Below, piece by piece: positions 4,704 to 41,964 of a stretch of DNA of 64,000 nucleotides (the stretch's first letter is position 1; every line of letters starts with the position of its first letter). The position numbers were made by a program, and so were the translations under genes. The stretch comes from Chloroflexota bacterium (GTDB lineage Bacteria; Chloroflexota; Dehalococcoidia; Lucifugimonadales; UBA3495), in assembly GCA_028875055.1 (NCBI GenBank), contig JAPPGG010000072.1:51032-115031 (forward strand), written 5' to 3'. A model generated the notes under the pieces. It worked only from the letters and a program-made list of their open reading frames with translations, was not told where the DNA came from and did no database searches.

Positions 4704-4845
4704 TGATTCGATGTCTGGCAAGCGCCCTTCTTGGCCCCATATCCGGGGCAGGGAATGCCAATGTGACAAGAATGTGGAGGCCTGAAAAGGCTCTAATCGG
4801 TTGCGGGTCTCATATCCGCCAACCATCAGCGGAAGGTGATTGTTA

Positions 4846-15003: not shown

Positions 15004-15008
15004 TTTGG

Positions 15009-15857
15009 CTACTCTCCTAGACCCAGCAGCCTTGCAGCGTTTCTGCCCAGAACGGCCCTCTTGTCAGCCTCGCTCATTTCCGATTCTTCCACCTGCCGGA
15101 TCAGCCGGCGGTGCTCCAACAGGGGGTAATCGGTCCCCAGGAGAATCTTGCCCGCGCCAATCGTCCTCGCGGCAATGTCGAAGACCTCCTTCCGGTACAG
15201 GAAAGGCGAGGCCGCCGAATCGAAATACACGTTCTCCAGTTCCCCAGGCACTTCGGGCATCAGGCCGTAGAAGGGCAGTCCTCCCCCCCAGTGGGCGCCG
15301 ATTATCGTATTGTCCGGAAAATTCTGCGCCAGCCGGTAGAGCAGGTCGGGTGTAGTATGCCCTTTCCCGGGGTACTCGTGCCCCACCGGTTCGGAGGTAT
15401 GCAGCAGCAGCGGCAAGCCTAGACTCCGGGCCAGGTCCATCACCGGCGACATAACCTCAAACTCAGATATGTCGAAGCCCTGGCAATCGGGATGAAGTTC
15501 GCCAATGCCCTTCAGGCCGGCGCGGGCGAAACGCTCAACTTCCGCTGTTGCCGCGTCCTTCCCCCAGCATGGGTTGACGGAACCAAAACAGGACAGCCGG
15601 TCTTTGAATCTCTCTGCGGTGTCAATCAGGTAATCGTTGACCTCGCGGGTTATTTCAAGGCTGCACCACCCGAAACCGCAGGCAACCGCGTGGTCCACGC
15701 CTGCCTTGTCCATAGCAGTCAGCAATGACTCGGCAGTCGCCATCTTGCCGCCGCCCCTGGGAAACAGGGCAGCGTATGTGGGATCTTGCGCCGACAGTTC
15801 ATCGTGGCGGTCAGGGAAAGAGGGGGGCAGAATGTGGCAGTGAAAATCGACAATCAT
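15009..15857 (-). CDS. Amidohydrolase-2 (ACMSD-like TIM-barrel metal hydrolase) family protein
   Basis: MIVDFHCHI gives an HxH metal motif at the N-terminus, followed by a TIM-barrel hydrolase-like sequence. The internal ATG at 15857 is preferred over the track start at 15914. Confidence 0.75.
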   Translation of the reverse strand: MIVDFHCHILPPSFPDRHDELSAQDPTYAALFPRGGGKMATAESLLTAMDKAGVDHAVACGFGWCSLEITREVNDYLIDTAERFKDRLSCFGSVNPCWGKDAATAEVERFARAGLKGIGELHPDCQGFDISEFEVMSPVMDLARSLGLPLLLHTSEPVGHEYPGKGHTTPDLLYRLAQNFPDNTIIGAHWGGGLPFYGLMPEVPGELENVYFDSAASPFLYRKEVFDIAARTIGAGKILLGTDYPLLEHRRLIRQVEESEMSEADKRAVLGRNAARLLGLGE

Positions 15858-19352: not shown

Positions 19353-19402
19353 GTGCCCTCCTGGGGTTCTGTCAAGAGCGTTCAGCGGACCGGCCGCCGG
19401 GG

Positions 19403-25393: not shown

Positions 25394-25528
25394 CCGGCAT
25401 GCGGAATCTTCGCACTGTATCTGACCCGATTGTTGTATAATGGGTTTCGCCTTTTCTTCGGCAACCATTTCAAGGGGAAACGGCGCCAGTCCTTACTGGG
25501 ACTGCTCCCGGGCCCGGGATTCAATAAT

Positions 25529-25604
<76 letters not shown>

Positions 25605-25821
25605 CCAGTTACCAGCAGTCCCCTTTTCGCCCTTACTCACTTGGCAGGACCTCCGCGCCGGCAATCCGGCGTGGCAATGGCTTTTGCCCTGGTCCGCCCG
25701 CCGGTGCGGGCAGGATTGAATCTGCGGCCTGCGCCAATGCGGGATTACTTCGAGCCTGCAGTCTCCTTCAGAAGCCCTTCAGGCCGCGCCATATTTTCCT
25801 CTCTACCCTCCGGGAGCCGGC

Positions 25822-27207
25822 ATGAGTGACTTGCCCCATATCCTCAGGCTTTCCGACTCTTTCTCCCAGCGTTCGGTTGCCCTGCGGCTCTCTGCAGAGG
25901 ACGCGTCCCTGCCGCTCAGCCATCTGATTGTCCGGTACCTGAAATGTCCTGACGGGCCCGACCTGCTGGCCAGGGAAGCAATTGCCCAGGAATCCCTCGT
26001 CACTCTTCAGTCGCTGCAGGACCTGGTTTACGCTTGCGATGACCTGGGTAGATTAACTGAGCCCTACTCGGGAGTCTCTTTCCGGCAGGATGACGCCCGA
26101 ATCGAAGTGAGTGAAATCCCGGGGTATTCCGAGATAGTAGTTGACGGGTCCAGCGCCAAGCTGACTGAGATTGTAATTGACCGCACCGATGCCGGTTACG
26201 ACAGGAACTGGGCCGGGTTTCATAGCCGTCGGTGGAACAATGCTCCCGGATTCTTTGAAGAGTTCGTGCTTGATTCGCTGGAGGAGGTCTTTGGTCCCCG
26301 GGAGGCTGGGCAGATTCTTCAACTCGAGAGCCAGGCGAGCATATTGGCCCTGGTGGAGACGCTTGCCAGGAAAATATGGGACAGCGAATTCGAAAATTAC
26401 TCCCGCTTTACCGGCCGGAAGCTGCTGTTCAAGACCGGCGACGAGACCGTCAGTAACATAGCTGCCGGCGCCGGCGGCATCTGCACCGAGAAAGTCCAGG
26501 CCCTCAGATTCCTCACCGACCACTACGGAATCCAGTCCGAGTACGTGATTGGCGGCGACGGCGCCCGTGACCCGGTCCCCGTCGAAAGGCTGAGGGAGAT
26601 GCTTCGGACCGGCGATTTCAGGTTTGCCCGGCGTCATATGCGCTACTGGCGGCACGCGGCCCTGCTTTACCAGATCGACGGGCTGCCCCTTCTCGTGGAC
26701 GCCACCAACGGCAACATCCCGTTCCTTTTCCTTAAGGGACCCGAGGCGGAGAGGCTCCTGGGGTATGAGCGCAAGCCATCCGTCCCCGTCAGGATGGTGG
26801 AAGCTGAGGAACAGTACTTCTACCACCGAGTCCCCCAGGACATTCCGCAGAACCTTTTCTTCGCCATGGAAAGCTGGATAACCGATACCGATATGGTCCA
26901 GGTTTTCGAGAATGAACTGGGCCTGTTTCTTTCCAGCGACTACTACGTCACTCCCCTACCCTATCGGACCCAGGCCGAATACCAGCGGCTGGCCGACGAA
27001 TACCAGGTCATCGCCGCCAGGGCAGGTTACCGGTGCCAGGCAAGCCCGCGGTGGACCCTGGACGGCGAGCCAGGTGAGGCCTTCTGCAAGTCCCACCCGG
27101 AAACTGCATCCCGGATATTGGACGCCAGGGAACATTTGCTGCTCAGGTATAATGGTTGGGACATTCCCGGTCACGACGCCGGCCTGGTTGTCATGGAAAT
27201 GGCCTGA
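25822..27207 (+). CDS. Hypothetical protein (461 aa) with possible transglutaminase-/papain-like Cys-His-Asp arrangement; first gene of the SecA-paralogue operon
   Basis: GGGAG RBS 6 nt upstream. GGICTEKVQALRFL (Cys221), RHAALLYQIDG (His278) and LLVDATNG (Asp293) have spacings of 57 and 15 aa, as in transglutaminase-core proteins. I recognise no other family. Confidence 0.7.
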   Translation: MSDLPHILRLSDSFSQRSVALRLSAEDASLPLSHLIVRYLKCPDGPDLLAREAIAQESLVTLQSLQDLVYACDDLGRLTEPYSGVSFRQDDARIEVSEIPGYSEIVVDGSSAKLTEIVIDRTDAGYDRNWAGFHSRRWNNAPGFFEEFVLDSLEEVFGPREAGQILQLESQASILALVETLARKIWDSEFENYSRFTGRKLLFKTGDETVSNIAAGAGGICTEKVQALRFLTDHYGIQSEYVIGGDGARDPVPVERLREMLRTGDFRFARRHMRYWRHAALLYQIDGLPLLVDATNGNIPFLFLKGPEAERLLGYERKPSVPVRMVEAEEQYFYHRVPQDIPQNLFFAMESWITDTDMVQVFENELGLFLSSDYYVTPLPYRTQAEYQRLADEYQVIAARAGYRCQASPRWTLDGEPGEAFCKSHPETASRILDAREHLLLRYNGWDIPGHDAGLVVMEMA

Positions 27208-27236
27208 ATCGACACCGGCGTCGCTGATTTCAGCCC

Positions 27237-30200
27237 ATGATTGCCAGCGACACTAAGCCACTCTACGCCCCGGCAAGACCAGGCGCCCTTACGCCTGGGG
27301 CCCTGCTGCGGCAGTGGCTGAGTGGTGTTGTTCATCCGGCTGCCAATTTGGTGTCACACCTTCGCGGGCAATCGCGGCAAGAGCTAGTGAAGAAAGTTCG
27401 CCAGGTTCGCCTGGATATGGCCCTGGAAGACTGGTCCGACTCGGACCTTCGCCGGCAAATGGACGACCTTCGGGCCGCCTTTTCTGAAACTCCAGGCCCC
27501 TCTGCCCGCGTCAATCGCCTTGTAGTCGCCTTCGCCATTGTCGATGAAAGTATTCGCCGGCGCGTGGGCTTCGGGCGTTTATTCAGCGACTCGGGCCGGT
27601 CCCCCGCTTTTGAGGCCTGTTTCGAGGCCTCGCAGGGACGTCGGAGCCTCAATGAGCTTTCGCCAGATGAAAAGACCGTCGCCGAAGCGATGATGCGGGC
27701 GGGCGCAGCAGGGAATGGTCGTTACGGTATTGACCTGATGTTCCCCGCCGGCCTCTACCGGGCGCTGGCTTCGGTGGACACCTCCGGTTCACTGCGCTTT
27801 CAGCCCACCGACGAGCAGCTGCTGGCGGGTATGTACCTGCTGGACAACCGGGTTGTAGAAATGCAGGCCGGCGAGGGAAAGACCGTTGCCATTGCTTTCG
27901 CCGCCATAGCCCACGCGCTTGGCGGACGGCATGTTCACATAATCACCGCCAATGATTACCTCGCCGACCGGGACTGCCGGCTACTGGCCCCGGTGTACAG
28001 GTCCCTTGGATTCTCTGCCGGCGCCATTCTGGAAGCCCTGGATGGCGCGGAGCGCAAGGCCGCCTACCAGAGCGATATTGTTTACGGCACCCTGAGGGAA
28101 CTGGGTTTCGATTTTCTTCGCGACCGACTGGCTGCCAGGGTCGAAGACGTGGTGCAGACCCCCCTTGGGGTGGCCATAGTGGACGAAGCGGACCAGGCGC
28201 TGGTGGATGAAGCGGACACTCCCCTCATTGTTTCCGGCCCACCGCTGCCCCAGTACCGTCCCTGGGCCCGCGTTCAAAAGGCGATCGGCGAAGTTGTCCA
28301 GGAGCAGCACAGAATCGCCGGGCAATATCTGCAACAGCTCAACGGCCTGGCCCCCGACGACAGAGCGTATGGCCGGTTGCTTTGCCTGGGGCTGCTTGCC
28401 AACCCCCACAGCAAGGACCTGCAGCGTCTTGCCCGCAACAATCCAGGTTCCTGCCGGCGGGGCCTTGGGGAACTCTACCCCGACGGCGGGGACAGTCCCG
28501 ACATGGCCCTCATCGCGAATCTGCTCTATGTCGTTGACCTCCACGAGCGATTCGTTACCCTCACCGAGAAGGGCGTGGACTTCCTTTCAAGTCGCCTGGG
28601 CGAATTCTGTCCCGCTTCCAACCACGGAGGCAAAGGTGGCGGGGACTCTGACCAGCTTACGAGGAGAGCGTCCCGGCAGCTGGCCCTGGCCAACCAGGTT
28701 TACCAGTCCCTCCGGGCCAACCTGCTCTTCGAAAGGGACGTCGATTACATCGTTTTCGATGACGCCGTCATACTGCTCGACCGGAACACCGGGCGTACCA
28801 GGCCCGATAACACTTACCGGTTCGGCCTGCAGCAGGCGGTGGAAGCCCGCGAAGGCGTAACCGTCCATCCCGAGAGTGAAACCGTGGCCCAGATTTCAGT
28901 CCAGGACTTTGCCGGGCGCTATCAGTTTCTTGCCGGCATTACCGGCACGGCCACCGCTGCCGCCAATGAGTTCAGGCGCCGCCACTCCCTGGACACCAAC
29001 GCAGTTCAACCCACTCAACCGTCCCAGCGTGTGGACTTGCCTTCCAGGATATTTGCTTCAGAAAGGCTGAAAATCGAGGCCATAGTGGAGGAAGTATCCT
29101 GGTGCCGGCGCATGGGCCGCCCGGTACTGGTGGGGACCGGTTCGGTCGGTTACTCCCTCGAAATCAGCCGGGCCCTCCGCGACGCCGGAATACACCACCG
29201 GGTCCTCAATGCAGTCCAGTCCCACCAGGAAGCGGACATTGTGCGCACTGCCGGCGCCCCGGGTGCGGTCACCGTGGCCACCAATATGGCTGGCCGGGGA
29301 ACCGATATCGTCCTCGATTCGGACGTGAACGATGTAATACTTGCCCGATGGGCTGACTTCGTTCTGGAAGCGGCCGCCGAGCAGCGGTTGCCCCTGGCAA
29401 TAAAGTGTTGCTCCAGGGCGGAGGCCGACCTTCTTGAGTCGGCCCTGGCAGATTCGCCTCTTATTTCAGTCTCTAGAGTCGGCGCACCCGGGGCGGAAGC
29501 CCTCCTGGTAACTGACCCACCCAGCCGGCTAGCCTGCAACCTGGACTCTGGCTTGTTCCATTGGGAATTTGGCCTGGGTCTCCACGTCATAAGCGCCGAG
29601 TTCAACCGGTTTCCCAGGGTTGCGCTGCAGCTCAGGGGACGCAGCGGACGCCAGGGTCTGTTTGGTTCAACCCGCTCAGTACTTTCCTGGGAAGATCCCG
29701 CTCTCCTCTCCCTGGGCCAAAGCCGCCCGGCCTTCCGGCGCTGCCAATATGAAGATGCCAGCGGCCGAGCCTGCTGGGAAGGTCAGGCTGTGGAAAGATA
29801 CATCGCCCGGCGGCAGGAGAACGCCGAGCAAGAGGCGGCTCAGCGCAGAAGCGTTGCCGGCGACTTTGCCTCCCTGATTGACGCCCAGAGTTCCGCCTAT
29901 TACGAGCTGCGCCAGGAACTCCTTTCCGGTCCTCGGGTCCTTGAGCGGTTGCCGGGCATTCTTTCAGACCGGGGTTCCCGCCTGGTACTGGAACATTTTC
30001 CCAACCTTGATACCGCCAGCTATCGTCAGCGCTATGAAGCCCTGATAAATGACGCCCGGCAGCGTTACGGGATAGTACTGGAAGAATTGTATGGGCTGTC
30101 ACTGGCCGCACTGCCTGCCGAAGTAGCCGCCAGAATGCGGCAGGCCGTGGACGAATTGGAACAGAGTCGCGGCCCCAGGGAGTTCAACTCACTGGTCCGG

Positions 30201-30479
30201 GGCTTGTGCGTCGAAACCTGCGATGAGTTGTGGCGCCGACACCTGGCCGACCTGCACCAGTCCGTTTTCAGTTCCCTCCTGAATGGCTATGGCCACAAGT
30301 CCGCGGTAGCCGACTACATTATCCACGCGGCGCAGTTGTGGGACCGTTTCAGCGACGACCTGTGGGACACGGTTTGTTCCAGATTGCTGACCCTTCCCTC
30401 TCCGCTGGATGAACCCGCAATCGGAAATCCCGTGGAGTGCGAAGAAATCCGAAGGGACCTGCTTTCCCTGATCCAGTGA
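27237..30479 (+). CDS. Divergent SecA-family ATPase (SecA paralogue, 1080 aa)
   Basis: Collinear with SecA. Walker A MQAGEGKT (27870-27884), ITANDYLADRD and DEADQALVDEADTPLIVSG. PPXD-flanking LFERDVDYIV, GLQQAVEAREGV and TGTA. NBD2 has PVLVGTGSV, ATNMAGRGTDI and QLRGRSGRQG. HSD/HWD-like tail (DELWRRHL). It differs from canonical SecA in several places (see findings). Confidence 0.9.
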   Translation: MIASDTKPLYAPARPGALTPGALLRQWLSGVVHPAANLVSHLRGQSRQELVKKVRQVRLDMALEDWSDSDLRRQMDDLRAAFSETPGPSARVNRLVVAFAIVDESIRRRVGFGRLFSDSGRSPAFEACFEASQGRRSLNELSPDEKTVAEAMMRAGAAGNGRYGIDLMFPAGLYRALASVDTSGSLRFQPTDEQLLAGMYLLDNRVVEMQAGEGKTVAIAFAAIAHALGGRHVHIITANDYLADRDCRLLAPVYRSLGFSAGAILEALDGAERKAAYQSDIVYGTLRELGFDFLRDRLAARVEDVVQTPLGVAIVDEADQALVDEADTPLIVSGPPLPQYRPWARVQKAIGEVVQEQHRIAGQYLQQLNGLAPDDRAYGRLLCLGLLANPHSKDLQRLARNNPGSCRRGLGELYPDGGDSPDMALIANLLYVVDLHERFVTLTEKGVDFLSSRLGEFCPASNHGGKGGGDSDQLTRRASRQLALANQVYQSLRANLLFERDVDYIVFDDAVILLDRNTGRTRPDNTYRFGLQQAVEAREGVTVHPESETVAQISVQDFAGRYQFLAGITGTATAAANEFRRRHSLDTNAVQPTQPSQRVDLPSRIFASERLKIEAIVEEVSWCRRMGRPVLVGTGSVGYSLEISRALRDAGIHHRVLNAVQSHQEADIVRTAGAPGAVTVATNMAGRGTDIVLDSDVNDVILARWADFVLEAAAEQRLPLAIKCCSRAEADLLESALADSPLISVSRVGAPGAEALLVTDPPSRLACNLDSGLFHWEFGLGLHVISAEFNRFPRVALQLRGRSGRQGLFGSTRSVLSWEDPALLSLGQSRPAFRRCQYEDASGRACWEGQAVERYIARRQENAEQEAAQRRSVAGDFASLIDAQSSAYYELRQELLSGPRVLERLPGILSDRGSRLVLEHFPNLDTASYRQRYEALINDARQRYGIVLEELYGLSLAALPAEVAARMRQAVDELEQSRGPREFNSLVRGLCVETCDELWRRHLADLHQSVFSSLLNGYGHKSAVADYIIHAAQLWDRFSDDLWDTVCSRLLTLPSPLDEPAIGNPVECEEIRRDLLSLIQ

Positions 30480-30566
30480 AAATCACGCTGCGCCGCGCCG
30501 GAAAGTCTCTTCCCGGCAGGGCGTCCGATTCCAGGAGCATTAGTCTTCCACCGGCAAGGAGTTGAA

Positions 30567-31391
30567 ATGGCCATAAGAATCAGAAGAATGAGCTCCGCGC
30601 TGTTTGCCGGCGCCATGCTGGCGGGGTCTCCGTTGATATCCGCGTGCAGCGCCGGCCCCACCTACGACACCTGGGCTGCCACCGACGGCGCCGCCGGCAG
30701 GATTAACCTGGACGACGTTCAGGAGGCATTCAAGGATTCCAGCAGCGCCACTGAGTTCGAGAATCGCGTCAACGAAATTTACGAGGGAGACGGCATAATC
30801 ATCATTCGGGCTCTCCAGGACGGAGACCGCCTGACCCTGGAAGGCTGGGAGGACCTGAACAATGACACCCAGATTGACGACTCCAGGGATGACCTGCTCT
30901 TCACCATCGTCAATCAGAATGACCAGAACGAGCTTCGCGGCCACCACGCCAACAGCTATTACCACAGCAGCTTCGGCGGCGGCGGCTTTTTGTTCGGCTA
31001 TATGCTGGCCACCGCCTTTATGCCCGGTCCATACTTCTACTCAACGCCGGTGACCCGCGGCTCTTCCATCCGCCAGACCCGCTCCTCCTATCGCCAGTCC
31101 GGCCGATACGGCACCCAGGTAGCCCGCAACAGCCGGTACGCGACCCAGCAGCAGGGTTTTGCCGGCTCCCGCTACCAGGATTCCGGCCGCAATCTCAGCT
31201 CCAACCGGCAGACTTACCAGCAGACGCAGCGAACTTCCGGCGCCTTTCGTTCCAGCAGCGCCGTTTCCAGGTCCAGGGGAACCTCCGGCTTTGGTTCCTC
31301 CGGATTCCGCTCCAGGAGCGGCAGCTTCAGCGGCGGCGGTGGCCACCAGAATCTGACTGGCAGGCGAGGCTCCACCCCGGATGCCCCCTGA
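30567..31391 (+). CDS. Predicted lipoprotein with R/S/G/Q-rich low-complexity C-terminal tail
   Basis: AAGGAG RBS 5 nt upstream. Signal peptide ending in the lipobox-like LISAC. A small acidic globular region, then the hydrophobic/Gly patch GGGGFLFGYMLATAF. The last 100 aa or so are dominated by R, S, G and Q. Confidence 0.75.
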   Translation: MAIRIRRMSSALFAGAMLAGSPLISACSAGPTYDTWAATDGAAGRINLDDVQEAFKDSSSATEFENRVNEIYEGDGIIIIRALQDGDRLTLEGWEDLNNDTQIDDSRDDLLFTIVNQNDQNELRGHHANSYYHSSFGGGGFLFGYMLATAFMPGPYFYSTPVTRGSSIRQTRSSYRQSGRYGTQVARNSRYATQQQGFAGSRYQDSGRNLSSNRQTYQQTQRTSGAFRSSSAVSRSRGTSGFGSSGFRSRSGSFSGGGGHQNLTGRRGSTPDAP

Positions 31392-32409
31392 CCGCCTGCA
31401 TATCGAACTGGCGCTGGAGGGTTTGCCGCCGGACGCCGTTCTTGAGTTTGAACTGCAGGAGGGCGCCACCGGCCTTTCCCTGGCCTCGCTTCTGGAAGAG
31501 GTTTTTCCTCGCGACGAGGCCGCCAGGATGGAGGTGGAAGAGTCCTTCGACTTGCGGTTAAATCCCGACGTGCCTGAAATCTACGGAGAATTCCTGGCGG
31601 TGGTCCGGCAATACCGGGCGGGCTTGTGCTCGCTCTCGGTCAGCTCCACCACTGGCCAGGACCTGTCCCCCACGGACCTGGTGGATGACCTGGTGGCCCC
31701 GGGTCCTCCCGGGAGCTTTTCGGTCCTGTCTCTGTCCCTGGCCGCCCAATACGATCCCCTGGAATATGCCGGGGACCAGGGTTACGATGCCGGCGAGCCG
31801 GACCTCCTGCACTGGTTGCTGGTGTGCTTAACGATGTACTTTATTGACAAGCACGAGTCATCCCTGCCAGCGCAGGAAAGCCTTGACCAGTGCCCGCCAT
31901 TGGCCTCGGCGGTGGATGAAATCCTCTCCCGAAACCTTGTAGAAACAGGGGACAACCCTCCAGCGGCTGCCATTACCCCCGAGGGCCGCAGGTTCATCGG
32001 AGACCTCCTGGCCGAAACCGAGCAGTTGATCGACTCTTATGACCTCTTCAAGGATGCCTGTTGGGATAAGGATACCGGCCAGGCCCTCTTTGGGACCGGA
32101 CAGGGGGAAGACTTGAGGGTCGAAGTGTTCATAGCAGATTCCATCGACCCGGTACGCGCCGTTTTTCTGCTTCGCCTCTACGACGGCTCGCTGGACCTTC
32201 TGGCTGACCGCTGGCCCGAGGCAGCCGCCGACATCGACCTCTTCAACAACTTGCTCTTGCCGGTAGTGGACCGGAGCGTCACTGAAAGTGAGTTGCTTGA
32301 GGAAATCATCGAGCAGGGCATGGAGTTGCTGGAGTCCCAGCAAGAAAGGATAAGGGAGGAAACCATATACAGAAGGGCTGCCCGCAGCGCGCTGGCCGAT
32401 GGATGCTAG
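31381..32409 (+). CDS. Hypothetical acidic protein (342 aa)
   Basis: ATG overlaps the 3' end of the lipoprotein gene by 11 nt (ATGCCCCCTGA). Strongly acidic, with no motif I recognise. The segment ITPEGRRFIGDLL is vaguely wHTH-like. Confidence 0.65.
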   Translation: MPPDRLHIELALEGLPPDAVLEFELQEGATGLSLASLLEEVFPRDEAARMEVEESFDLRLNPDVPEIYGEFLAVVRQYRAGLCSLSVSSTTGQDLSPTDLVDDLVAPGPPGSFSVLSLSLAAQYDPLEYAGDQGYDAGEPDLLHWLLVCLTMYFIDKHESSLPAQESLDQCPPLASAVDEILSRNLVETGDNPPAAAITPEGRRFIGDLLAETEQLIDSYDLFKDACWDKDTGQALFGTGQGEDLRVEVFIADSIDPVRAVFLLRLYDGSLDLLADRWPEAAADIDLFNNLLLPVVDRSVTESELLEEIIEQGMELLESQQERIREETIYRRAARSALADGC

Positions 32410-32462
32410 GAAATTGCACCGCACTCGACACCATTCTGTTGGTGGTGCAGTCTTTAGGGTCT

Positions 32463-32584
32463 GTCGTCAAATTGAAAATGGAAGCTCCCCAACCCACCAT
32501 TTCGTCGTTCCCGCGAAGGCGGGAACCTCGCCAGCTGCAGTCAGGATTCCTCCTGTTTCAAGAACGGCGAGCCGTTTTGACGAT
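32463..32584 (+). repeat. Family-B 122-bp intergenic element, copy 1
   Basis: GTCGTCAAA...TTTGACGAT terminal inverted repeats. Central perfect hairpin GTTCCCGC-GAAG-GCGGGAAC (32507-32526). Near-identical core to the copies at 52042 and 62793. Confidence 0.8.
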
Positions 32585-32669
32585 ACCCCCTGGTCTTTAA
32601 GGCTGAAGCTGTGGTGGGTTAAGACCGTCCCAAATGGCGCCACATTAAATTGTCGCCCGCTCCAAAACG

Positions 32670-32695
32670 TCTCGCCTGAGCGACGTCAGGCGAGA
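32670..32695. terminator. Bidirectional intrinsic terminator between convergent genes
   Basis: TCTCGCCTGA-GCGACG-TCAGGCGAGA gives a 10-bp stem. Flanked by CCAAAACG on the left (T-run on the minus strand) and AACCTTTTTCC on the right. Confidence 0.6.
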
Positions 32696-32760
32696 AACCT
32701 TTTTCCTATCCCCGGGGCTCACCGGCTAGACTGGAGTGGCGAACCCCCCTCGCAGCCAGC

Positions 32761-33663
32761 CTAAATGGCAAAAAACAGTATCAGGGAAGAACTGATCACC
32801 ACCGTGCTCTCCAGTAGCGCCACCCCGAGGTTGCGGCCCTCACTCATCTGCTGTGCGACCTTTACCCCGGGTAGCAGCAGCAGGTCCACAATCAGGCGAA
32901 GAATATAGAGCAGCACAAATCCTATGATAGCGAAAACCACGAATTCCGTGATGCTGGCCTGCCAGCTTACGAAATCGCCGGACAGGGCCTTCAGCATTAC
33001 CAGGCCGATGGCAATAAGGTTGCCGCCGAAGGCCACCCCTACGGCCGCGTTATCCTTCTCGATCTCATCGTGTACGTCGAACGAGGTGGTCAATTCATAG
33101 AACAGGGCAAACAATACCAGCACTACCAGGCCAAGCCCCAGGAAGACCAGCGTGGACACGGCTTCAAGGACCTCGCTCCCGCCCCCGCTTCCCGTGAGGG
33201 AGCCGGCAATCATCAAGCCTGTGGCTACGCTGATTCCGAACTCGGCGGCGCCGGTTCCCACGTTCCGGTCCTCAACGATTTCCTTCTCTACGTTGAACTT
33301 GTACAGCACCAGCTTGTCCATCACCAGTCGCAGAATGTTCAGCGCGACAATGCCGCCCAGGGAATACAGGAACACCCTGAGAACATCTACGCCAAACTCG
33401 GCGTCGAACCCCAGCCCCGGGTCCAGCAATGCCAGGTGCGCCGGCTGATAGACTGCCCCCACGAATACCAGCACAACCCCCAGCAGGTACCCCGACAGGC
33501 GCAGGGATTCCGCCAGGTTCTGCTTCTGGACTACTTCCTCATCCTCCTTGAGGGTGGTGATAGCGCTTCTGACCAGCTTGGCCAGCAGTACCACCACTAC
33601 GCCCAGGACCACATAAACCAGCCCCCGGGGGAAGAACGTCAGTGAATCGATCAGTGCTTCCAT
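32761..33663 (-). CDS. DUF350-repeat integral membrane protein (YjfL-like)
   Basis: Multiple hydrophobic helices with repeated DUF350-like segments (AAEFGISVATGLMIAGSL; NAAVGVAFGGNLIAIGLV). The start ATG at 33663 lies 17 nt after the DUF4178 stop, with AAGGAG overlapping that stop. The track's longer N-terminus is R/G-rich. Confidence 0.75.
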   Translation of the reverse strand: MEALIDSLTFFPRGLVYVVLGVVVVLLAKLVRSAITTLKEDEEVVQKQNLAESLRLSGYLLGVVLVFVGAVYQPAHLALLDPGLGFDAEFGVDVLRVFLYSLGGIVALNILRLVMDKLVLYKFNVEKEIVEDRNVGTGAAEFGISVATGLMIAGSLTGSGGGSEVLEAVSTLVFLGLGLVVLVLFALFYELTTSFDVHDEIEKDNAAVGVAFGGNLIAIGLVMLKALSGDFVSWQASITEFVVFAIIGFVLLYILRLIVDLLLLPGVKVAQQMSEGRNLGVALLESTVVISSSLILFFAI

Positions 33664-33680
33664 AAAATCTGCCGGCTCCT

Positions 33681-34271
33681 TTACCCGGGCCGTTCCCCCG
33701 GATAGAGCTGTATGTTTTCTTCCGAGATAATGTCCGCGAAGTGAGCTTCGAAGGGCGTGCCCTCGAATTTCGTGATTGACAGTATTCTGCTCTCGTCCTC
33801 GGCCAGGAACTCCCACATGTAGAACCCTTCCCCGTCCGTGGGCCGGTTGTCCTTGAAGTAAAAGGCCTCGAAACTGTTGCGGTACATGAAACGCAGCCCG
33901 TCAAACTCAATGGACCGGTCGATCGACCTGCGTTCATCCATCTCCAGCAGGGCGGACTCAGGCAGGCCTATGGCTTCCAGGCCCACAGGGCGTCGGTTGT
34001 CGGTGGCAGTAACGAACAGGGTTGGGCCATCCTCCGACCACTCCAGCCATATGCGATTCTCCGCGTCCGCCACCACCAGTTCGTACCAGACGGCCCCGTT
34101 GCCACCGTAACGATGCAGGCTTTCAACCACAAAATAACATTCTTCGTAGTCCAGGGCCCAACCCTGTATGGTGACCACGTCCCCCACCCGGGCCTCCCTC
34201 AAGCTGTTATCGGCCCGAAAGCCCGTAGGGGCCGGCCGCTTCTTCCCCCTGCCAAAAAGTCCCCGAAGCAT
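33681..34271 (-). CDS. DUF4178 domain protein (YjfK-like)
   Basis: 196 aa, beta-rich. ARVGDVVTIQG...WYELVVAD...IWLEWSED resembles DUF4178 as I recall it. Operonic with the DUF350 gene, a pairing I recall as recurrent. Confidence 0.7.
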   Translation of the reverse strand: MLRGLFGRGKKRPAPTGFRADNSLREARVGDVVTIQGWALDYEECYFVVESLHRYGGNGAVWYELVVADAENRIWLEWSEDGPTLFVTATDNRRPVGLEAIGLPESALLEMDERRSIDRSIEFDGLRFMYRNSFEAFYFKDNRPTDGEGFYMWEFLAEDESRILSITKFEGTPFEAHFADIISEENIQLYPGERPG

Positions 34272-34628
34272 GTTGTCTGTTCCTTCTCTCTCGAATTAGC
34301 TGGTTTTGGGAGAGGACGGCCTTCAACGTCCCTGGCTTCTACCGTAGGCGGCTGCAGCCTCCCTTCCCTGCTCAAAAGCAACAATAACTGGACAACATCA
34401 TAGCACGGGGCCGGTTGGTCGAGGGTTTGCAACGGCGGCCCTGTTGCCCAGCTTTGCGATTGTCGCCAGGCAGGCAGCCAACCCGGTTAGCCCGCGGGTT
34501 GCCCTCGCGGCAAAACCGGTTCTGAAACCCTGCCAAGGAACTTCGCCCCCTTCCGGTTCCGGGGGTCCGATCACCTGATCAAGAAGGGTGCTTGCCAGGC
34601 AGTCCCCCTGATTTGCATTGCCCTGCCC

Positions 34629-34657
34629 TTGACCCCTAATGGCGGGAAATGTATTGT
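34629..34657 (+). promoter_or_regulatory. Candidate promoter for the small-TM/pspA operon
   Basis: TTGACC (34629-34634), 17-nt spacer, TATTGT (34652-34657). Confidence 0.4.
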
Positions 34658-34733
34658 GGAGTTGAGCAACTCAGATACGGTGCTCACTTTTTTCGCATTT
34701 CATCCTTTCAAATCCATGTAGGCGGTGAACCTG

Positions 34734-34904
34734 ATGGGCTCATTCGGCGGCATCCTCGCTGCTATTTTTCTGCTGATTCTCGGGGTGCTCCTGATAACCG
34801 GTATTCTCGATTTCATCCTGTGGATACTTGGCGCCGTCTGCATCGTGCTTGGCATAATTGTAGGCGCCATGGCAGTTTTCGGAGGCAAGAGAAACAGCTT
34901 CTGA
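34734..34904 (+). CDS. Small hydrophobic two-TM protein (56 aa), not in the ORF track
   Basis: MGSFGGILAAIFLLILGVLLITGILDFILWILGAVCIVLGIIVGAMAVFGGKRNSF*. Clean hydrophobic periodicity and a basic C-terminus. It lies 100 nt upstream of pspA on the same strand. The competing track ORFs here are R/H/W-rich. Confidence 0.5.
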   Translation: MGSFGGILAAIFLLILGVLLITGILDFILWILGAVCIVLGIIVGAMAVFGGKRNSF

Positions 34905-35004
34905 ATTCGGACCCCCAGGTTTCCGGCCATTCGGTTTCAACCCGATTCCACGAAAGAATAAATCGAACAGGCTCCCCATCCTATCCAGTCTGGAGGTCCC
35001 CAGC

Positions 35005-35775
35005 ATGGGAATGTTCTCAAGAATGTCCACAATCGTTAAGTCAAAAATGAACCGAATCCTGGACTCAGCGGAAGACCCCAGGGAAACCCTCGATTACTCC
35101 TACGAGAAACAGCTGGAAATGCTCCAGAACGTGAAGCGGGGCGTGGTGGAAATGGTTACCGCCAAACGCCGCATCCAGCAGCAGGCAGCCAAGGTGCGCG
35201 AGAACGTTACCCGCCTCGAGCGCCAGGCCAGGCAGGCCCTGGACGCCGACCGGGAAGACCTCGCCCGTCTGGCCCTGCAACGCAAGCAGAACGCTCTCAT
35301 CGAACTTCAGGGTCTGGATGAGCAGATCGAAGGAATGGAGCAGGAACAGCAGAAACTCACCATCGCCGAGCAGAGGCTGCAGGCCAAGGTTGACGCCTTC
35401 CGCAACAAGAAGGAAATCATCAAGGCCCAGTACACCGCAGCCCAGGCCCAGGTGAGGATCGGCTCGGCCCTGGGAGGAATCTCCGAGGAAATGAGCGACG
35501 TTTCCCTGGCTGTGCAGCGCGCGGAAAACAAGACTGACCAGATGCGGGCCAAGGCCGGCGCCATCGATGAGCTCGTGGAAACCGGCGTTCTGGACGACAT
35601 CACCGGACCCCAGGACGACATTGAAAGGGAGCTCTCCCAGATCTCCATTTCCCAGGGCGTCGAGGAAGAACTTGCCGCCCTCAAGGGTGGTGGCTCCGGC
35701 GCCAGGGCGTTGCCAGCCTCTCAGTCTGCCGTGGACGCCGAACTGGACGCTCTCAGAAACCAGGGTTCCAGCTAA
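35005..35775 (+). CDS. pspA: PspA/IM30 (Vipp1) family protein
   Basis: MGMFSRMSTIVKSKMNRILDSAEDPRETLDYSYEKQ parallels the PspA N-terminus [25 protein letters not shown]. Long coiled coil. GGAGGT RBS. Confidence 0.9.
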   Translation: MGMFSRMSTIVKSKMNRILDSAEDPRETLDYSYEKQLEMLQNVKRGVVEMVTAKRRIQQQAAKVRENVTRLERQARQALDADREDLARLALQRKQNALIELQGLDEQIEGMEQEQQKLTIAEQRLQAKVDAFRNKKEIIKAQYTAAQAQVRIGSALGGISEEMSDVSLAVQRAENKTDQMRAKAGAIDELVETGVLDDITGPQDDIERELSQISISQGVEEELAALKGGGSGARALPASQSAVDAELDALRNQGSS

Positions 35776-35796
35776 TCTAGGGGCAGGTGGACAAAG

Positions 35797-36075
35797 ATGA
35801 TCGTAAGAATTCTGGGTGAAGGCCAGTTCAATCTGCCCGGCGCGGCAATCGACGAGCTGAACGAAATTGACAACCGCATGGTGGAAGCCGTGGAGGCGGA
35901 AGACCGCTCCACGCTGACTGCTCTGCTTCAGGAAATGGAAACCCTAGTCCGCGAAAAGGGAGAGCCGGTACCTATCGATGAGCTGGTGGAGTCAGACCTG
36001 ATTCTGCCCGAAACCGACCTCACCCTGGAAGAAGCCGAAAGCATATTTGTGGGCGAAGGGCTCCTGCCAGGTTAG
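35797..36075 (+). CDS. Small acidic PspA-associated protein (PspAA-like)
   Basis: 92 aa and very acidic, 21 nt downstream of pspA. Its size, position and MIVRILGEGQF... start fit the PspA-associated small protein family as I recall it. Confidence 0.6.
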   Translation: MIVRILGEGQFNLPGAAIDELNEIDNRMVEAVEAEDRSTLTALLQEMETLVREKGEPVPIDELVESDLILPETDLTLEEAESIFVGEGLLPG

Positions 36076-36098
36076 TTTCCGTATCGCACCAATCCAGC

Positions 36099-36126
36099 AG
36101 GGGGGACGCGCCGACGTCCCCTCTTT
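36099..36126 (+). terminator. Intrinsic terminator of the pspA operon
   Basis: GGGGGGACG-CGCCGA-CGTCCCCTC stem of 9-10 bp, followed by TTT. Confidence 0.55.
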
Positions 36127-36152
36127 CTGCCTCAATCCCCGTCCTTGAACCC

Positions 36153-37469
36153 TTACCCTTGCGTCTCCACCACCGGCGCCGGACGAATCGGTCGCCGGAC
36201 CGATGCGGGATCAATGCCGGCGCGCATGGCCGACATCACCCCTGCAGCCTCCCAGTAATTCTCCACCACGTAGAACTGTCCCGTTTGCCAGGGAAGCATT
36301 TCCAGGTCGTTCCGCATCAGGTTCCGGTTCTCTCTTACGGCGATCACCTTGATCCCCTGTTCCAGCGCCGCAAGCACCGGCAGCCCCAGGCAACCCTCCG
36401 GAATCACCAGGCAGGAAATGTTCGACGCGCCAATGACGCCCGGATGGGCCATGGCGGCAGCATCGGTAGTCAGGGCAGGGCTCTGCTGCAACCCCTTCAG
36501 AATGCATTGAATCAGCGCCAGGGAAACTCCCTCCGCTGCCATGCGAGGGTCAATAATCCCCGGGTCGGCGTTGGCAATGGCCTGGGTCTCCAGCATGGGC
36601 GCGTGGGCCGACGGCACGTCCAGCATTGCGGAAACGGCATGCGTCAGCATGGCTTCCACCCCGCCCCAGGGATTTACCATCTCCCCGTTGCTGTCAAAGT
36701 ACTCGGCGTGGAAGCCTTCTGGGACATTTATCTGGGAGGATATGGCGACGGCATCAAACTGCCCCCTGTACTCTTCCAGGGCGTCCAGAACGCGTTCCAG
36801 GCCCCTGACTTTGCCCGCTGCCCTCCCCGACCCCACATAGGCTGATGCCATCTCGAACTCCGGGCCCAGCCTGACCATCCCCGGGACAGCCAGTCCATAT
36901 GTGGCGCGGGCCGCGTTAACCGAGTTTATGGCGGCGTTCAGGAACAGCTCGTCATTGTGGTGACCCAGCAGAACCAGGACCCGGTTGCTGCGGGTTCGCT
37001 GCAGTCCCACCGCTCCCATCAGGAGCCGCGAGATTATGCTCCCTTCCACGTAAAGCGCATTCCCCGGAATGTCGATGATGTCCGATGCATTGACTACGTT
37101 GGGGTGGGTGATCAGGGTGTCGCAGGCGGCAGACAGCAGCTTTGCCACCGGCGTGGCATCCCCCGCATGCCCCCCAATTTCGGCCCCAATTCCCGTGGGA
37201 ACCAACAACACGCAGGTAAAATTCCCCACGTTCTCAAAGGAGCGGCGATGAAACTGGAATATGGAAGAGGGAGGCGCTCCTTCCCACTCCGACAGTATGC
37301 TTACTTCGCAGTTGAACGCTTCGCCGGAGGACGAAGTCACCGCCAGCCTGACGGGCCATTCACCCGCAACAAGCTGCCGCCCAACGCCATCTCCCAGATC
37401 CGCCAAAGCGGCTCCGGACCGGACGTCCACGGGGACGGTCAATTCCCTTTCATGAAGGATGGCTGGCAT
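36153..37469 (-). CDS. DUF3326 family protein
   Basis: LLVPTGIGAEIGGHAGDATPVAKLL...THPNVVNASD is the conserved DUF3326 core as I recall it. The start ATG at 37469 overlaps the nspC 3' end by 20 nt. Confidence 0.75.
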   Translation of the reverse strand: MPAILHERELTVPVDVRSGAALADLGDGVGRQLVAGEWPVRLAVTSSSGEAFNCEVSILSEWEGAPPSSIFQFHRRSFENVGNFTCVLLVPTGIGAEIGGHAGDATPVAKLLSAACDTLITHPNVVNASDIIDIPGNALYVEGSIISRLLMGAVGLQRTRSNRVLVLLGHHNDELFLNAAINSVNAARATYGLAVPGMVRLGPEFEMASAYVGSGRAAGKVRGLERVLDALEEYRGQFDAVAISSQINVPEGFHAEYFDSNGEMVNPWGGVEAMLTHAVSAMLDVPSAHAPMLETQAIANADPGIIDPRMAAEGVSLALIQCILKGLQQSPALTTDAAAMAHPGVIGASNISCLVIPEGCLGLPVLAALEQGIKVIAVRENRNLMRNDLEMLPWQTGQFYVVENYWEAAGVMSAMRAGIDPASVRRPIRPAPVVETQG

Positions 37470-38622
37470 TAGTTTTCCATCGTCCGGCGTAGTCCTCGTA
37501 GTCAAACTCCCTCAGCAGCCTGAGCCGCCCTTCCGGGCTGACCGCGTAAAGAGTTGGCAGATTGACACCGTTGAAGGTGTGGGCCTTGGCCAGGGTATAG
37601 GAACCGGCATTCTTGAATACCACCCGGTCTCCCACCTCTAGCGGACGCTCAAATCTGTACTCTCCGAATACATCGCCGGCCAGGCAGGTGCACCCGGCCA
37701 GCAGGTACTCCCATTTCCCGTCGTCCTGGTGACCATCCACGTCCGGCCCAAAGTCGAACTCCAGCAGTTCCGGCATGTGGTTGACTGTGGTGTCCAGCAC
37801 TGCGACCATCTTCCCGCCGCTGTCGAAAATGTCCAGCGCCGTGCTGACCATGTGCCCCGCGGAACGGGCAAAGGCCGTGCCGGGTTCAAGAAAAACCATC
37901 AGGTCGTATTCCCCGCGCAGGTGTTCGATGGTCGCACGCAGGGGGGCCAGGTCAACCCCCTCCGGCAACAGGTAGCCTCCGCCCAGGTTTATCCACGACG
38001 CCTGCTCCAGCAGATGGGGCAGCCGCTGCTCGAGGCAGTCCACCGTCTGTTGCAGCTCAAGGAAATCGGTAGATTCGCAGTTTGTATGCACCAGCAATCC
38101 CTCGGGCTTCCCGACGCCCAGTCCCTCCAGGCTGTCCATGCCGGCCAGGACGTCAATGGGAATGCCCAGCTTCGAGTGTTCGCGGCACGGGTCATACCGT
38201 TCGTCGTCAAGAAAGGACATTCCCGGATTGACCCTCAGTCCCGGGCTGGCCCGGCCATCAAAATAAGCCCCGGTGTTGCGCCATTGCCCCAGGCTGTTGA
38301 AGGAGACATAATCGCACAGGCCCGCCAGCTCCGAAGCGTCTCGAAGCCTGATTCCGGGGCTGGTGAAATGGATGGAACTGGGCTCTCCCACGACCGAGCG
38401 CGCCAGCCTGGCTTCAAACACCGAACTCGCTGCGAAGCCGCTCAGCCTCGGCGCCATCAGCTCCAGCATTGGCGGGAGGGGCAGGGGTTTGAGGGAATAG
38501 AGCATCCTGCAGCCTGTCTCCCTCTGCAGGGACTCGGCAACCTCCAGAACCCGCAGAATCTCTCCCTCATCGTAAACGAGGGCCGGGGTATTCACGGCAT
38601 CAAGCAGGCTGCTTAACTGCAT
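37450..38622 (-). CDS. nspC: Carboxynorspermidine/carboxyspermidine decarboxylase
   Basis: 390 aa. PALVYDE...LYSLKPLP (PLP-Lys region), GGGY and CLAGD(V/I)FGEY are characteristic of the CANSDC branch of alanine-racemase-fold decarboxylases. Confidence 0.8.
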   Translation of the reverse strand: MQLSSLLDAVNTPALVYDEGEILRVLEVAESLQRETGCRMLYSLKPLPLPPMLELMAPRLSGFAASSVFEARLARSVVGEPSSIHFTSPGIRLRDASELAGLCDYVSFNSLGQWRNTGAYFDGRASPGLRVNPGMSFLDDERYDPCREHSKLGIPIDVLAGMDSLEGLGVGKPEGLLVHTNCESTDFLELQQTVDCLEQRLPHLLEQASWINLGGGYLLPEGVDLAPLRATIEHLRGEYDLMVFLEPGTAFARSAGHMVSTALDIFDSGGKMVAVLDTTVNHMPELLEFDFGPDVDGHQDDGKWEYLLAGCTCLAGDVFGEYRFERPLEVGDRVVFKNAGSYTLAKAHTFNGVNLPTLYAVSPEGRLRLLREFDYEDYAGRWKTNASHPS

Positions 38623-40503: not shown

Positions 40504-41964
40504 ATGCCGGTGCGGACTGGTGCGGAATATCTGCAGGGGTTGAGGGACCGTCCTCCCGAGGTGTGGGTGGGCGGAGAACGGGTAAAGGATGTCACGGTCC
40601 ATCCTGGATTTGCCAACGGCGCCAGGTCCGTCGCCGCCCTCTATGACATGCAGAATGAGCCCGGCCTTCGCGAGGAAATGACCTATCTTTCCCCGGCATC
40701 GGGCGAACGTGTAGGCCTGTCCTTCATCGCGCCGGAAAATCTCGAAGACCTGGAACGGCGGCGCGGGATGTTCTACAGGTGGGCCAGCTGGCACGGCGGC
40801 ATGATGGGACGGACTCCCGACTATATGAACGCCGCCTTCGTGGCAATGGCCTCCGCCGCTCCTTATTTCGACCAGGACCGGAAGGGCTTTGGCGACAATG
40901 TCAGGAACTACTATGAGCTGATCCGCGAGCAGGACCTGTGCCTCACCCACACCCTCGTTAATCCCCAGCGCAGCCGCTCTCCCCAGCGTTACATTACCGA
41001 TTCCCTGGCCGAGGACGTAGCCCTGAAGGTTATCCGGGAGACTGATGCCGGCATAGTGGTGCGCGGCGCGCGGGTGCTGGCCACCCTGGGTCCGCTCTCC
41101 GACGAGATCGCGGTCTATCCTTCCCGCTCGCACCACACCGCCGACAACGCCGAGCAATATGCCGTGTCCTTCTCCATCCCCAGTAGCACCCCCGGTCTGC
41201 GCTACATTTGCCGGGAGAGTTTTGACTACGGCCGTTCTCCCTTTGACCATCCCCTGGGCTCCCGCTTCGAGGAAATGGACGCGGTTGCCATTTTCGATAA
41301 CGTCCTGGTTCCCTGGGAGCGGGTTTTCCTGCTGGGCAGCGTGGAAAGCTGCAACAATATGACCAACCGGACGGGCTGGATCTTCCACAGTTTCCACCAG
41401 GTGGTCACCCGCATCCTCGCCAAGACCGAGTTCCTCCTGGGCACCGCCTCGCTGATGGTGGAAACCCTGGGCTCCGGGGAACAACCCCACGTTCAGGAAC
41501 GCATCGCCGAGATGATAATGCAGCTGGAAATCATCAAGGCTTTGCTGCGGACGGCCGAGGTGGACGCCGCCCCGGACGAATGGGGTCTCCTGACGCCGGC
41601 CCGGTTTCCCCTGACCGTCGCGGAGAATATGTACGCCCGGAGCTTCTACCCCCGGATGGTGGAGATTATGCAGCTGCTGGGCTCCAGCAGCCTGATGGCC
41701 CTTCCCAGCGAAGCCGATTTCGACTCTGAGATTGGCCCGGACCTTCAGCACTACCTGGCCACCGACACCGCTACTGCCATAGACCGTACCAGGCTTTTCC
41801 ACCTGGCCTGGGATATTTCCTGCAGCGCTTTTGGTTCCCGCAGCCTGCACTACGAGCGTTTCTTTGCCGGCGACCTGGTACGCAACGCCCAGATAATGTA
41901 CGCCACCTACGACCGCTCACCCATGATGGACGCCGTCCGCCGGTTCCTGGAACGGGAGGGCTGA
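40504..41964 (+). CDS. HpaB-family flavin-dependent monooxygenase oxygenase component (4-hydroxyphenylacetate 3-monooxygenase-like)
   Basis: MPVRTGAEYLQGLRDRPPEVWVGGERVKDV is the typical HpaB N-terminus. 486 aa with an acyl-CoA-dehydrogenase-like fold. Confidence 0.85.
   Translation: MPVRTGAEYLQGLRDRPPEVWVGGERVKDVTVHPGFANGARSVAALYDMQNEPGLREEMTYLSPASGERVGLSFIAPENLEDLERRRGMFYRWASWHGGMMGRTPDYMNAAFVAMASAAPYFDQDRKGFGDNVRNYYELIREQDLCLTHTLVNPQRSRSPQRYITDSLAEDVALKVIRETDAGIVVRGARVLATLGPLSDEIAVYPSRSHHTADNAEQYAVSFSIPSSTPGLRYICRESFDYGRSPFDHPLGSRFEEMDAVAIFDNVLVPWERVFLLGSVESCNNMTNRTGWIFHSFHQVVTRILAKTEFLLGTASLMVETLGSGEQPHVQERIAEMIMQLEIIKALLRTAEVDAAPDEWGLLTPARFPLTVAENMYARSFYPRMVEIMQLLGSSSLMALPSEADFDSEIGPDLQHYLATDTATAIDRTRLFHLAWDISCSAFGSRSLHYERFFAGDLVRNAQIMYATYDRSPMMDAVRRFLEREG

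Follow-up and report, generated by a model that had tools for sequence, protein, structure and literature searches.

We describe a ~13-kb gene block (positions 25822–38622) in a 64-kb stretch of a Chloroflexota genome belonging to marine SAR202 (Dehalococcoidia; ~61% G+C), in which a divergent paralogue of the motor protein SecA is encoded alongside polyamine-related enzymes, a lipoprotein, a DUF350 membrane protein and PspA. The whole 64-kb stretch is hereafter termed the window. Our reading is that the block is a SAR202 multi-operon system built around an older polyamine module, to which the SecA paralogue and a PspA unit have been added, and that it works by the membrane-associated mechanism proposed below; we put the probability of this reading as a whole at roughly 0.55. 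That the neighborhood is functional in some form appears to us highly probable. The evidence comes from the conservation of the block across SAR202 genomes, from single operons in distant lineages that join genes from several of its units, and from the affinities of the encoded proteins.

Gene organization of the block

The block comprises eleven genes in four transcription units. The first unit, on the forward strand, runs from a 461-aa protein through the SecA-like protein and the lipoprotein to an acidic protein, with spacings of 30 nt and 88 nt and then an 11-nt overlap. The second, on the reverse strand, encodes a DUF4178 protein followed by the DUF350 protein; the third, forward, encodes a 56-aa transmembrane (TM) protein, PspA and PspAA; and the fourth, reverse, encodes a decarboxylase followed by a DUF3326 protein, their genes overlapping by 20 nt. 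The genes that an earlier note on this DNA had listed for the interval are present at the coordinates it gave:

25822–27207, forward: cytoplasmic 461-aa protein (g461), with no Pfam or NCBIfam match
27237–30479, forward: SecA-family protein, 1080 aa, with SecA_DEAD, PP_bind, P-loop and SW domains
30567–31391, forward: lipoprotein, 274 aa, from its sequence, alignments and composition
31381–32409, forward: acidic protein, 342 aa, with no Pfam match, described from a structural model
32670–32695, forward: terminator-like hairpin in the convergent gap 3′ of the first unit, a 10-bp stem with 6 G-C pairs and then a T-run
32761–33663, reverse: DUF350 membrane protein, 300 aa, ~8 TM segments by hydropathy; Pfam DUF350, 171 bits over two stretches
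33681–34271, reverse: DUF4178 protein, 196 aa, 18 nt upstream of the DUF350 gene; Pfam, 37.8 bits
34272–34733, no strand: divergent intergenic region between the DUF4178–DUF350 and PspA units, presumed from the gene layout to be a promoter or regulatory region
34734–34904, forward: single-TM protein, 56 aa, upstream of pspA; called in the source contig, with one TM segment
35005–35775, forward: PspA/IM30 protein, 256 aa; Pfam PspA_IM30, 92 bits
35797–36075, forward: PspAA (PspA-associated domain A), 92 aa; Pfam PF22743, 115 bits
36153–37469, reverse: DUF3326 protein, 438 aa; Pfam DUF3326, 300 bits
37450–38622, reverse: pyridoxal-phosphate enzyme of the carboxy(nor)spermidine-decarboxylase family, 390 aa; TIGR01047, 273 bits

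A promoter and terminator scan of the region returned site totals at the chance level, the hairpin at 32670–32695 being included in that scan; one promoter-like site lies at 34629–34657 in the divergent region, where the number of sites is likewise not above chance. An Rfam search recovered a tRNA alone, with no family matching 34272–34733.

Conservation and rearrangement of the block across SAR202

A synteny scan that took the block lipoprotein as its seed and a single genome from each species recovered relatives in 281 genomes, the best 80 of which were fetched with 10-kb flanks and annotated with the window proteins. All 80 loci belong to Dehalococcoidia/SAR202; the related genomes are all metagenome-assembled, and close homologues carry the title “MAG: Chloroflexota bacterium”. 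Family counts were taken over the 71 loci with complete 10-kb flanks. Over these, the SecA-like gene is present in 69 loci, the acidic protein in 68, DUF350 in 67, the 461-aa protein and DUF4178 in 66 each, the NspC-like decarboxylase in 63, DUF3326 in 62, PspA in 58 and PspAA in 57; the 56-aa TM protein was detected in 42 despite its shortness. Among the families flanking the block in the window, NIPSNAP is found in 25 loci, Trx in 20, Mfd in 19 and a metallo-β-lactamase (MBL) in 12, and no further family recurs in more than 14. The earlier note had named conserved co-localization as the check on its proposal, and this is what the counts display, with block genes at 57–69 of the 71 loci versus 12–25 for the flanks. 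Look-ups centered on loci around SecA-like homologues from 71% down to 42% identity plus one at 38% (L009) found the whole block intact throughout the former range and a four-gene SecA operon on its own in L009.

The arrangement of the block varies in a limited number of ways. A window-like gene order is seen in 41 loci, and in these and in L041 the polyamine pair (decarboxylase and DUF3326) lies at the PspA end in convergent orientation. In 15 loci the pair instead immediately precedes the 461-aa gene on the same strand, in 4 it is upstream with its internal order swapped, and in L073 it is inverted along with the 461-aa and SecA-like genes. In L008 the block is kept while both flanks are replaced, and in L006 mobile elements lie upstream. 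Every rearrangement event left the block genes linked. We interpret the block, from this comparative pattern, as a multi-operon SAR202/Dehalococcoidia system that is kept together by selection.

Conservation by descent only would mean that we are looking at a slowly rearranging region of one class whose units are functionally unlinked. The confinement of all 80 loci to Dehalococcoidia/SAR202 accords with this, as do the arrangement types, which track clades in a distance tree of the SecA-like proteins, and the window’s own clade, which keeps the flanks (Mfd, Trx, tRNA-Pro, NIPSNAP and MBL) as well. It does not readily explain why flanks and block genes differ so strongly in frequency, why the polyamine pair changed end, order and strand yet remained adjacent, or why lineages of 29–57% G+C have genes of three of the units joined in a single operon (see below), and we disfavor it as very improbable.

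Several further features of these loci were noted in passing. The block of L007 has not been dispersed by the insertion of a DDE transposase that separates DUF4178 from the PspA unit; the lipoprotein gene of this locus is duplicated (13631–15639, 18860–20185), the copies being 387 aa and 265 aa long. In 13 loci the 461-aa and SecA-like genes are separated by one for a K+ channel with Ion_trans_2 and RCK domains, a channel that is also encoded in the distant operons described below; loci with K+ or other ion channels include L009, L034, L041 and L055, as well as L008, L047 and L048, and an Ion_trans channel adjoins the polyamine pair in ~11 loci. TelA was considered as an alternative stress partner and rejected, as it was seen in 2 loci only.

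An older polyamine module in distant lineages

A profile for the family of the 461-aa protein retrieved only 175 clusters from 1.84 billion representative proteins. A metagenome scan seeded on its distant members uncovered co-directional operons on contigs of 29–57% G+C, which take the following forms. The first codes for a DUF350 protein, a lipoprotein, a 368-aa protein, a 461-aa-like protein, an NspC-like decarboxylase and a DUF3326 protein. The second combines AdoMet_dc-like, DUF3326, DUF350, lipoprotein, acidic-like and 461-aa-like genes with genes for an SNase-like protein and a K+ channel (RCK). In the third, the 461-aa-like gene is joined by those for a 263-aa protein, an AMP-binding enzyme and a K+ channel. 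SecA-like, PspA and DUF4178 genes are absent from all the distant core operons found. These operons appear to belong to unrelated marine lineages.

The occurrence in a single distant operon of core genes that come from three of the sub-blocks delineated in the earlier note points to one older polyamine module, comprising the decarboxylase, DUF3326, the 461-aa enzyme, the lipoprotein, the acidic protein and the 8-TM DUF350 protein, and often accompanied by an RCK-domain K+ channel or an AMP-binding enzyme. Because the core operons lack SecA, PspA and DUF4178, the SecA paralogue, DUF4178 and PspA–PspAA with its small TM protein are best read as SAR202 additions. In SAR202 the gene for the SecA paralogue is inserted between the NAT-like (461-aa; see below) and lipoprotein genes. 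SNase-like genes also adjoin the module in L088 (10915–12503), L098 (6698–7330) and L099 (11307–11942).

The same operons are the chief evidence for an alternative, namely that the block consists of two or three independent systems whose adjacency has no function in SAR202 and is simply tolerated: a polyamine/NAT-like/lipoprotein/DUF350 module, a general PspA–PspAA stress operon and an accessory SecA with non-polyamine clients. A cross-lineage core devoid of SecA, PspA and DUF4178 is what one would expect of such an assemblage, and it would also accommodate the loci in which no PspA lies within 10 kb (13 of the 71), those in which the four-gene SecA operon stands alone (L009 and 3 of the 71 loci, L034, L044 and L085) and the PspA–PspAA dyads that stand alone in many phyla (PMC11237479). 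It is harder to reconcile with the location of the SecA paralogue inside an operon, between the NAT-like and lipoprotein genes, in 69 of the 71 loci, or with PspA–PspAA staying beside DUF4178–DUF350 through flank turnover, the insertion-sequence insertion in L007 and the relocation of the polyamine pair. Moreover, the association of PspA with DUF350, DUF4178, lipoprotein and polyamine genes recurs independently in proteobacteria (PMC11237479). We take this to be the most serious of the alternatives, and consider it rather unlikely. Hence, of the view in the earlier note that the block is one functional neighborhood, the linkage at the level of synteny stands, while its sub-blocks prove to be unequally bound, SecA, DUF4178 and PspA–PspAA lying outside the core. 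Separation of the sub-blocks in related genomes, which the note had regarded as telling against its view, is seen in the loci with a solitary SecA operon.

The 461-aa protein is predicted to adopt an amide-forming enzyme fold

An AlphaFold model of the 461-aa protein (predicted local distance difference test score, pLDDT, 83.7) displays an N-terminal β-rich domain followed by a core with a putative arylamine N-acetyltransferase (NAT)/transglutaminase fold. In Foldseek searches of the PDB its top matches are NATs and the amide synthase GdmF, followed by transglutaminase-like proteins (E 1.6e-3, probability ~1.0); the NAT and amide-synthase matches have E ~1e-3 and TM-scores of 0.37–0.44 normalized to the target. 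A putative Cys-His-Asp triad is formed by C221, H278 and D293, none of which varies among 28 homologues. An ungapped hhalign alignment with E. coli NhoA, of 0.6% probability, superimposes the FEN motifs of the two proteins and pairs C221 with the catalytic Cys69, and the 15-residue spacing of the His and Asp equals the NAT spacing in the Salmonella and E. coli NAT numbering. The distant tier of the family retains the pattern PFEN...GGxCxEK...H...D, as scanned in a 6-sequence subset, the 18-sequence alignment being too diverse. The protein has no Pfam NAT match; one distant member has a weak match to Transglut_core, and the family profile returned nothing useful from PDB sequences, so that fold comparison alone was informative. 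For its part, L088 encodes a bona fide Transglut_core protein beside its lipoprotein gene.

Contextual evidence connects this family to polyamines. On a contig of 38% G+C (L092, 1597–3912) we found a 771-aa fusion of an arginase-family (agmatinase-like) domain to a 461-aa-type domain that keeps the Cys, His and Asp; the gene downstream of it codes for an XRE-type regulator and not for SecA. An NspC-like gene comes immediately after that of another, distant homologue. The 461-aa enzyme thus probably acts in polyamine-related chemistry.

An AMP-binding (adenylate-forming) enzyme of ~430 aa takes the place of the 461-aa gene in L064 (5533–6840) and L081 (1612–2886), is found alongside it in L041 (4387–5727) and L085 (3889–5187), and also occurs at L103–L105. 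These swaps suggest that interchangeable amide-forming enzymes can serve in the system. As a separate observation, the 461-aa enzyme and the acidic protein both start with a ββα-type domain (encoded at 25822–26200 and 31381–31760, respectively), each with weak ubiquitin-like (β-grasp) matches.

The polyamine pair

The decarboxylase aligns over its full length with a solved carboxynorspermidine decarboxylase (CANSDC; 254 bits, E 2e-74), and its TIGR01047 score falls below the equivalog cutoff of 409. Its partner is DUF3326, whose gene overlaps the decarboxylase stop codon and is translationally coupled to it; the saccharopine-dehydrogenase-like carboxynorspermidine dehydrogenase is not its adjacent partner. 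The second member of the polyamine biosynthesis pair named in the earlier note is DUF3326 rather than the canonical dehydrogenase. Our search found no solved relative of DUF3326. In the distant operons it is paired with an NspC-like gene or AdoMet_dc, and in the pavettamine pathway a polyamine product depends on the DUF3326 protein PavB, PavA (with an NspC-like domain) and PavB both being needed for the triamine intermediate (bioRxiv 10.64898/2026.06.12.731819).

A more conservative interpretation would hold the decarboxylase and DUF3326 to be a housekeeping spermidine or norspermidine pathway and the 461-aa protein to be an unrelated enzyme. The full-length match to solved carboxynorspermidine decarboxylases agrees with it, but the score below the NspC equivalog cutoff and the presence of DUF3326 in place of the canonical dehydrogenase in 62 of the 71 loci do not, nor do the fusion of the 461-aa family to an agmatinase-family domain and its adjacency to NspC-like and DUF3326 genes in distant lineages. 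Accordingly small is the weight we give it: we think it unlikely.

The SecA paralogue

The SecA-like protein scores 515 bits against the NCBIfam SecA model, whose cutoff is 814, and 355 bits against E. coli SecA. It has a ~190-aa N-terminal extension without SecA similarity and an enlarged insertion in the second nucleotide-binding domain (NBD2). The deposited gene call starts 60 codons later, at the alternative start 27417, and the 1080-aa form is not on record; NCBI names its close relatives “hypothetical protein”. Across 83 members of the SecA-paralogue family, the GEGKT (Walker A), DEAD, TGT, AGRGTD and GRSGRQG motifs are all invariant.

A Dehalococcoidia genome (L047) encodes, 4.5 kb upstream of its SecA operon, an N-terminal fragment of canonical SecA that matches E. 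coli SecA from residue 1 at 52% identity (SecA_DEAD, 285 bits) and the paralogue at the same locus at only 40%. Since L047 carries both genes, the SecA-like gene is a true paralogue that coexists there with canonical secA. We rejected its identification as the housekeeping SecA in light of the sub-cutoff scores, the “hypothetical protein” naming and the canonical secA of L047. No second SecA is encoded within the 64-kb window.

The lipoprotein, acidic protein, DUF350, DUF4178 and PspA

The lipoprotein has a lipobox cysteine (Cys27), an acidic N-domain (pI 4.1), a Gly/aromatic segment at residues 136–160 and a basic tail rich in Ser, Arg, Gln and Gly (pI 12); beyond the 281 species genomes, its relatives are found in the distant operons. 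The acidic protein (pI 4.05) is modeled (pLDDT 90.5) with a β-grasp-like N-domain, a winged-helix-like domain and a long C-terminal helix. Its PDB matches are weak and to ubiquitin-like and winged helix-turn-helix (wHTH) folds only; its weak relatives occupy the equivalent position in the distant operons.

The earlier note had likened these proteins to those of the E. coli yjf locus. This is borne out for the DUF350 protein (YjfL-like), whose Pfam match resolves into two tandem domains, and fails for the other three. The lipoprotein is not detectably a YjfM/YgiB-like DUF1190 protein: a relaxed Pfam search gave DUF1190 at E=1.7, with E=0.12 for the best of 8 homologues, and hhalign gave 0.2% against YjfM and, for a broader profile against YjfM and YgiB, 8% in the lipobox region only. 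Similarly, we rejected a relationship of DUF4178 to YjfK (DUF2491; hhalign of the family, 1.5%) and orthology of the PspA with YjfJ (BLAST E=0.27); the PspA is of the PspA–PspAA and not the YjfI–YjfJ type, and no DUF2170 (YjfI) protein is encoded in the block.

Proposed mechanism and its weighing

We propose that the decarboxylase and DUF3326 would make a specific polyamine, which the NAT-fold enzyme would join to an acyl or peptidyl group by an amide bond, a chemistry of the same kind as that of the ATP-grasp peptide-spermidine ligases YjfC and YgiC. At the membrane, the product would act in concert with the lipoprotein and DUF350, which along with the acidic protein would localize the polyamine chemistry there. 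The SecA paralogue would export or insert a dedicated client, for which the lipoprotein is the most plausible candidate, and PspA–PspAA would protect the membrane during this activity. The identification of the lipoprotein as the client is tentative, and we lean against it.

Several observations weigh against this reading of the block. The core exists without SecA or PspA, and the SecA operon can stand alone, such that the role of the motor and of PspA may be looser than proposed or different. No SecY2-like partner is encoded in the block, none of its proteins matching a SecY or Asp family. In a fast alignment of the 83 SecA-paralogue members, the tip residue of the two-helix finger (residue 1018) is variable, being Tyr in 22, His in 28 and Arg in 14; as this residue varies while the ATPase motifs are invariant, substrate engagement may differ from that of canonical SecA. 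The NAT assignment of the 461-aa protein, a model-derived one, draws on Foldseek matches at E ~1e-3 and a low-probability hhalign alignment. Furthermore, the SAR202 evidence comes from a single bacterial class and from the 80 closest of the 281 genomes, and, since the arrangement types follow clades, the independent rearrangement events within it would number a handful and not dozens.

A more elaborate version of the proposed mechanism is conceivable, in which a polyamine made by the decarboxylase and DUF3326 is attached covalently to a protein client that the SecA paralogue then translocates or inserts, while PspA–PspAA seals the membrane. In such a “modify-then-export” pathway, the NAT/transglutaminase-fold enzyme would modify, for example, the lipoprotein in its Ser/Arg/Gln/Gly tail, at Gln or carboxyl groups, and this basic tail would be chaperoned by the acidic β-grasp/wHTH protein. 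We regard this as a long shot. If true, it would constitute a polyamine analogue of SecA2/SecY2 glycoprotein export and would point to the neighboring lipoproteins as the long-sought physiological substrates of YjfC and YgiC.

SAR202 rank with the most abundant cells in the dark ocean, and the block, which connects polyamine chemistry and PspA with a second SecA motor, bears on their little-known envelope biology. It also provides a context and testable roles for four families, namely the 461-aa NAT-fold enzyme, the acidic β-grasp/wHTH protein, the lipoprotein and DUF3326.

Other features of the window

A tRNA-Pro(CGG) gene at 25529–25604 on the forward strand precedes the block by 218 nt, and the open reading frame (ORF) at 25430–25825 is a spurious read-through of it. 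We considered a genomic island at this tRNA and rejected it, as the tRNA travels with the block in the window’s own clade only. Ffh/SRP54 is encoded at 11376–12707 (forward), 13 kb upstream of the block, and an HpaB-like monooxygenase at 40504–41964 (forward), downstream of the MBL gene; a related gene is found in 13 related loci. Finally, a 688-aa ORF at 4840–6906 (forward) fuses a dihydrodipicolinate-synthase-family domain (PF00701) to a 4-(hydroxymethyl)-2-furancarboxaldehyde-phosphate synthase domain (PF04476), the latter of the MfnB type that serves in methanofuran biosynthesis, a fusion unusual for a Chloroflexota genome.

Comparison with known systems

The SecA paralogue resembles the accessory SecA2 proteins of mycobacteria and the SecA2/SecY2 systems of Gram-positive cocci in being a second, divergent SecA with intact ATPase motifs, which is encoded beside candidate client or helper genes and coexists with canonical SecA. 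Unlike them, it scores far below four NCBIfam SecA2 models (TIGR04397, TIGR04221, TIGR03714 and NF012136; 339–426 bits versus cutoffs of 725–1100), lacks accompanying SecY2/Asp genes, and has the ~190-aa N-terminal extension, a polyamine/PspA context and a Chloroflexota lineage. The 461-aa enzyme appears to share with NATs and amide synthases the predicted fold, the FEN motif and the GGxCxE catalytic-Cys motif; it differs from NATs in its length of 461 aa, the additional N-terminal β-rich domain, a C-terminal extension and an insertion between the Cys and the His. The polyamine pair parallels the pavABC cluster of Burkholderia sensu lato in the adjacency of NspC-like decarboxylase and DUF3326 genes, whereas the decarboxylase of the block has no Rieske domain, there is no JmjC hydroxylase and the genes are set within an envelope-related block.

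With yjfIJKLMC and ygiBC of E. coli the block has in common PspA_IM30, a membrane protein of the DUF350 family, a lipoprotein whose C-terminal region is rich in Gly, Ser and Arg, and an enzyme that should form polyamine amide bonds, and K+ channels accompany both kinds of operons in some genomes. In contrast to these loci, it lacks DUF2170/YjfI, DUF2491/YjfK, a detectable DUF1190 and an ATP-grasp ligase, while PspAA-paired PspA, the duplicated DUF350, the polyamine synthesis genes and the SecA paralogue are its own. E. coli YjfC and YgiC are annotated as peptide-spermidine ligases, each adjoining a DUF1190 lipoprotein; no block protein matches an ATP-grasp or glutathionylspermidine-synthetase family, the NAT-fold enzyme being there instead. 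The echo of the yjf locus that the earlier note perceived is hence a thematic and not an orthologous one, extending to the PspA_IM30 and DUF350 families common to both and not to the ligase. E. coli has an ATP-grasp enzyme where the block has a NAT-fold one and some relatives have an AMP-binding one; that different amide-forming enzymes, known or predicted, hold equivalent places makes the physiological role of the E. coli yjf/ygi loci more directly testable.

Close precedents are the operons reported by Ravi et al. (mSystems 2024, PMC11237479). One type combines PspA, an 8-TM DUF350, a lipoprotein of the Ctha_1186 type, DUF4178 and a membrane-fused spermine synthase, and the other, the yjf type, an ATP-grasp ligase, a K+ channel, DUF350, DUF1190 and DUF2491 (PMC11237479); SecA has 0 occurrences in that article. 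Like these operons, the block brings together an 8-TM DUF350, DUF4178, a lipoprotein, PspA and a polyamine-forming enzyme in one neighborhood. Unlike them, it has a CANSDC-family decarboxylase with DUF3326 and no membrane-fused aminopropyltransferase: neither a 7TM-fused spermine/spermidine synthase nor a CesT/Tir-like chaperone has a Pfam match among the block proteins. Over and above the operons of that study, it codes for the NAT-fold enzyme, the acidic β-grasp/wHTH protein and the SecA paralogue. The combination of genes in the block appears to be undescribed so far. The block therefore extends the PspA/DUF350/polyamine theme, with the SecA paralogue and the NAT-fold enzyme as new components.

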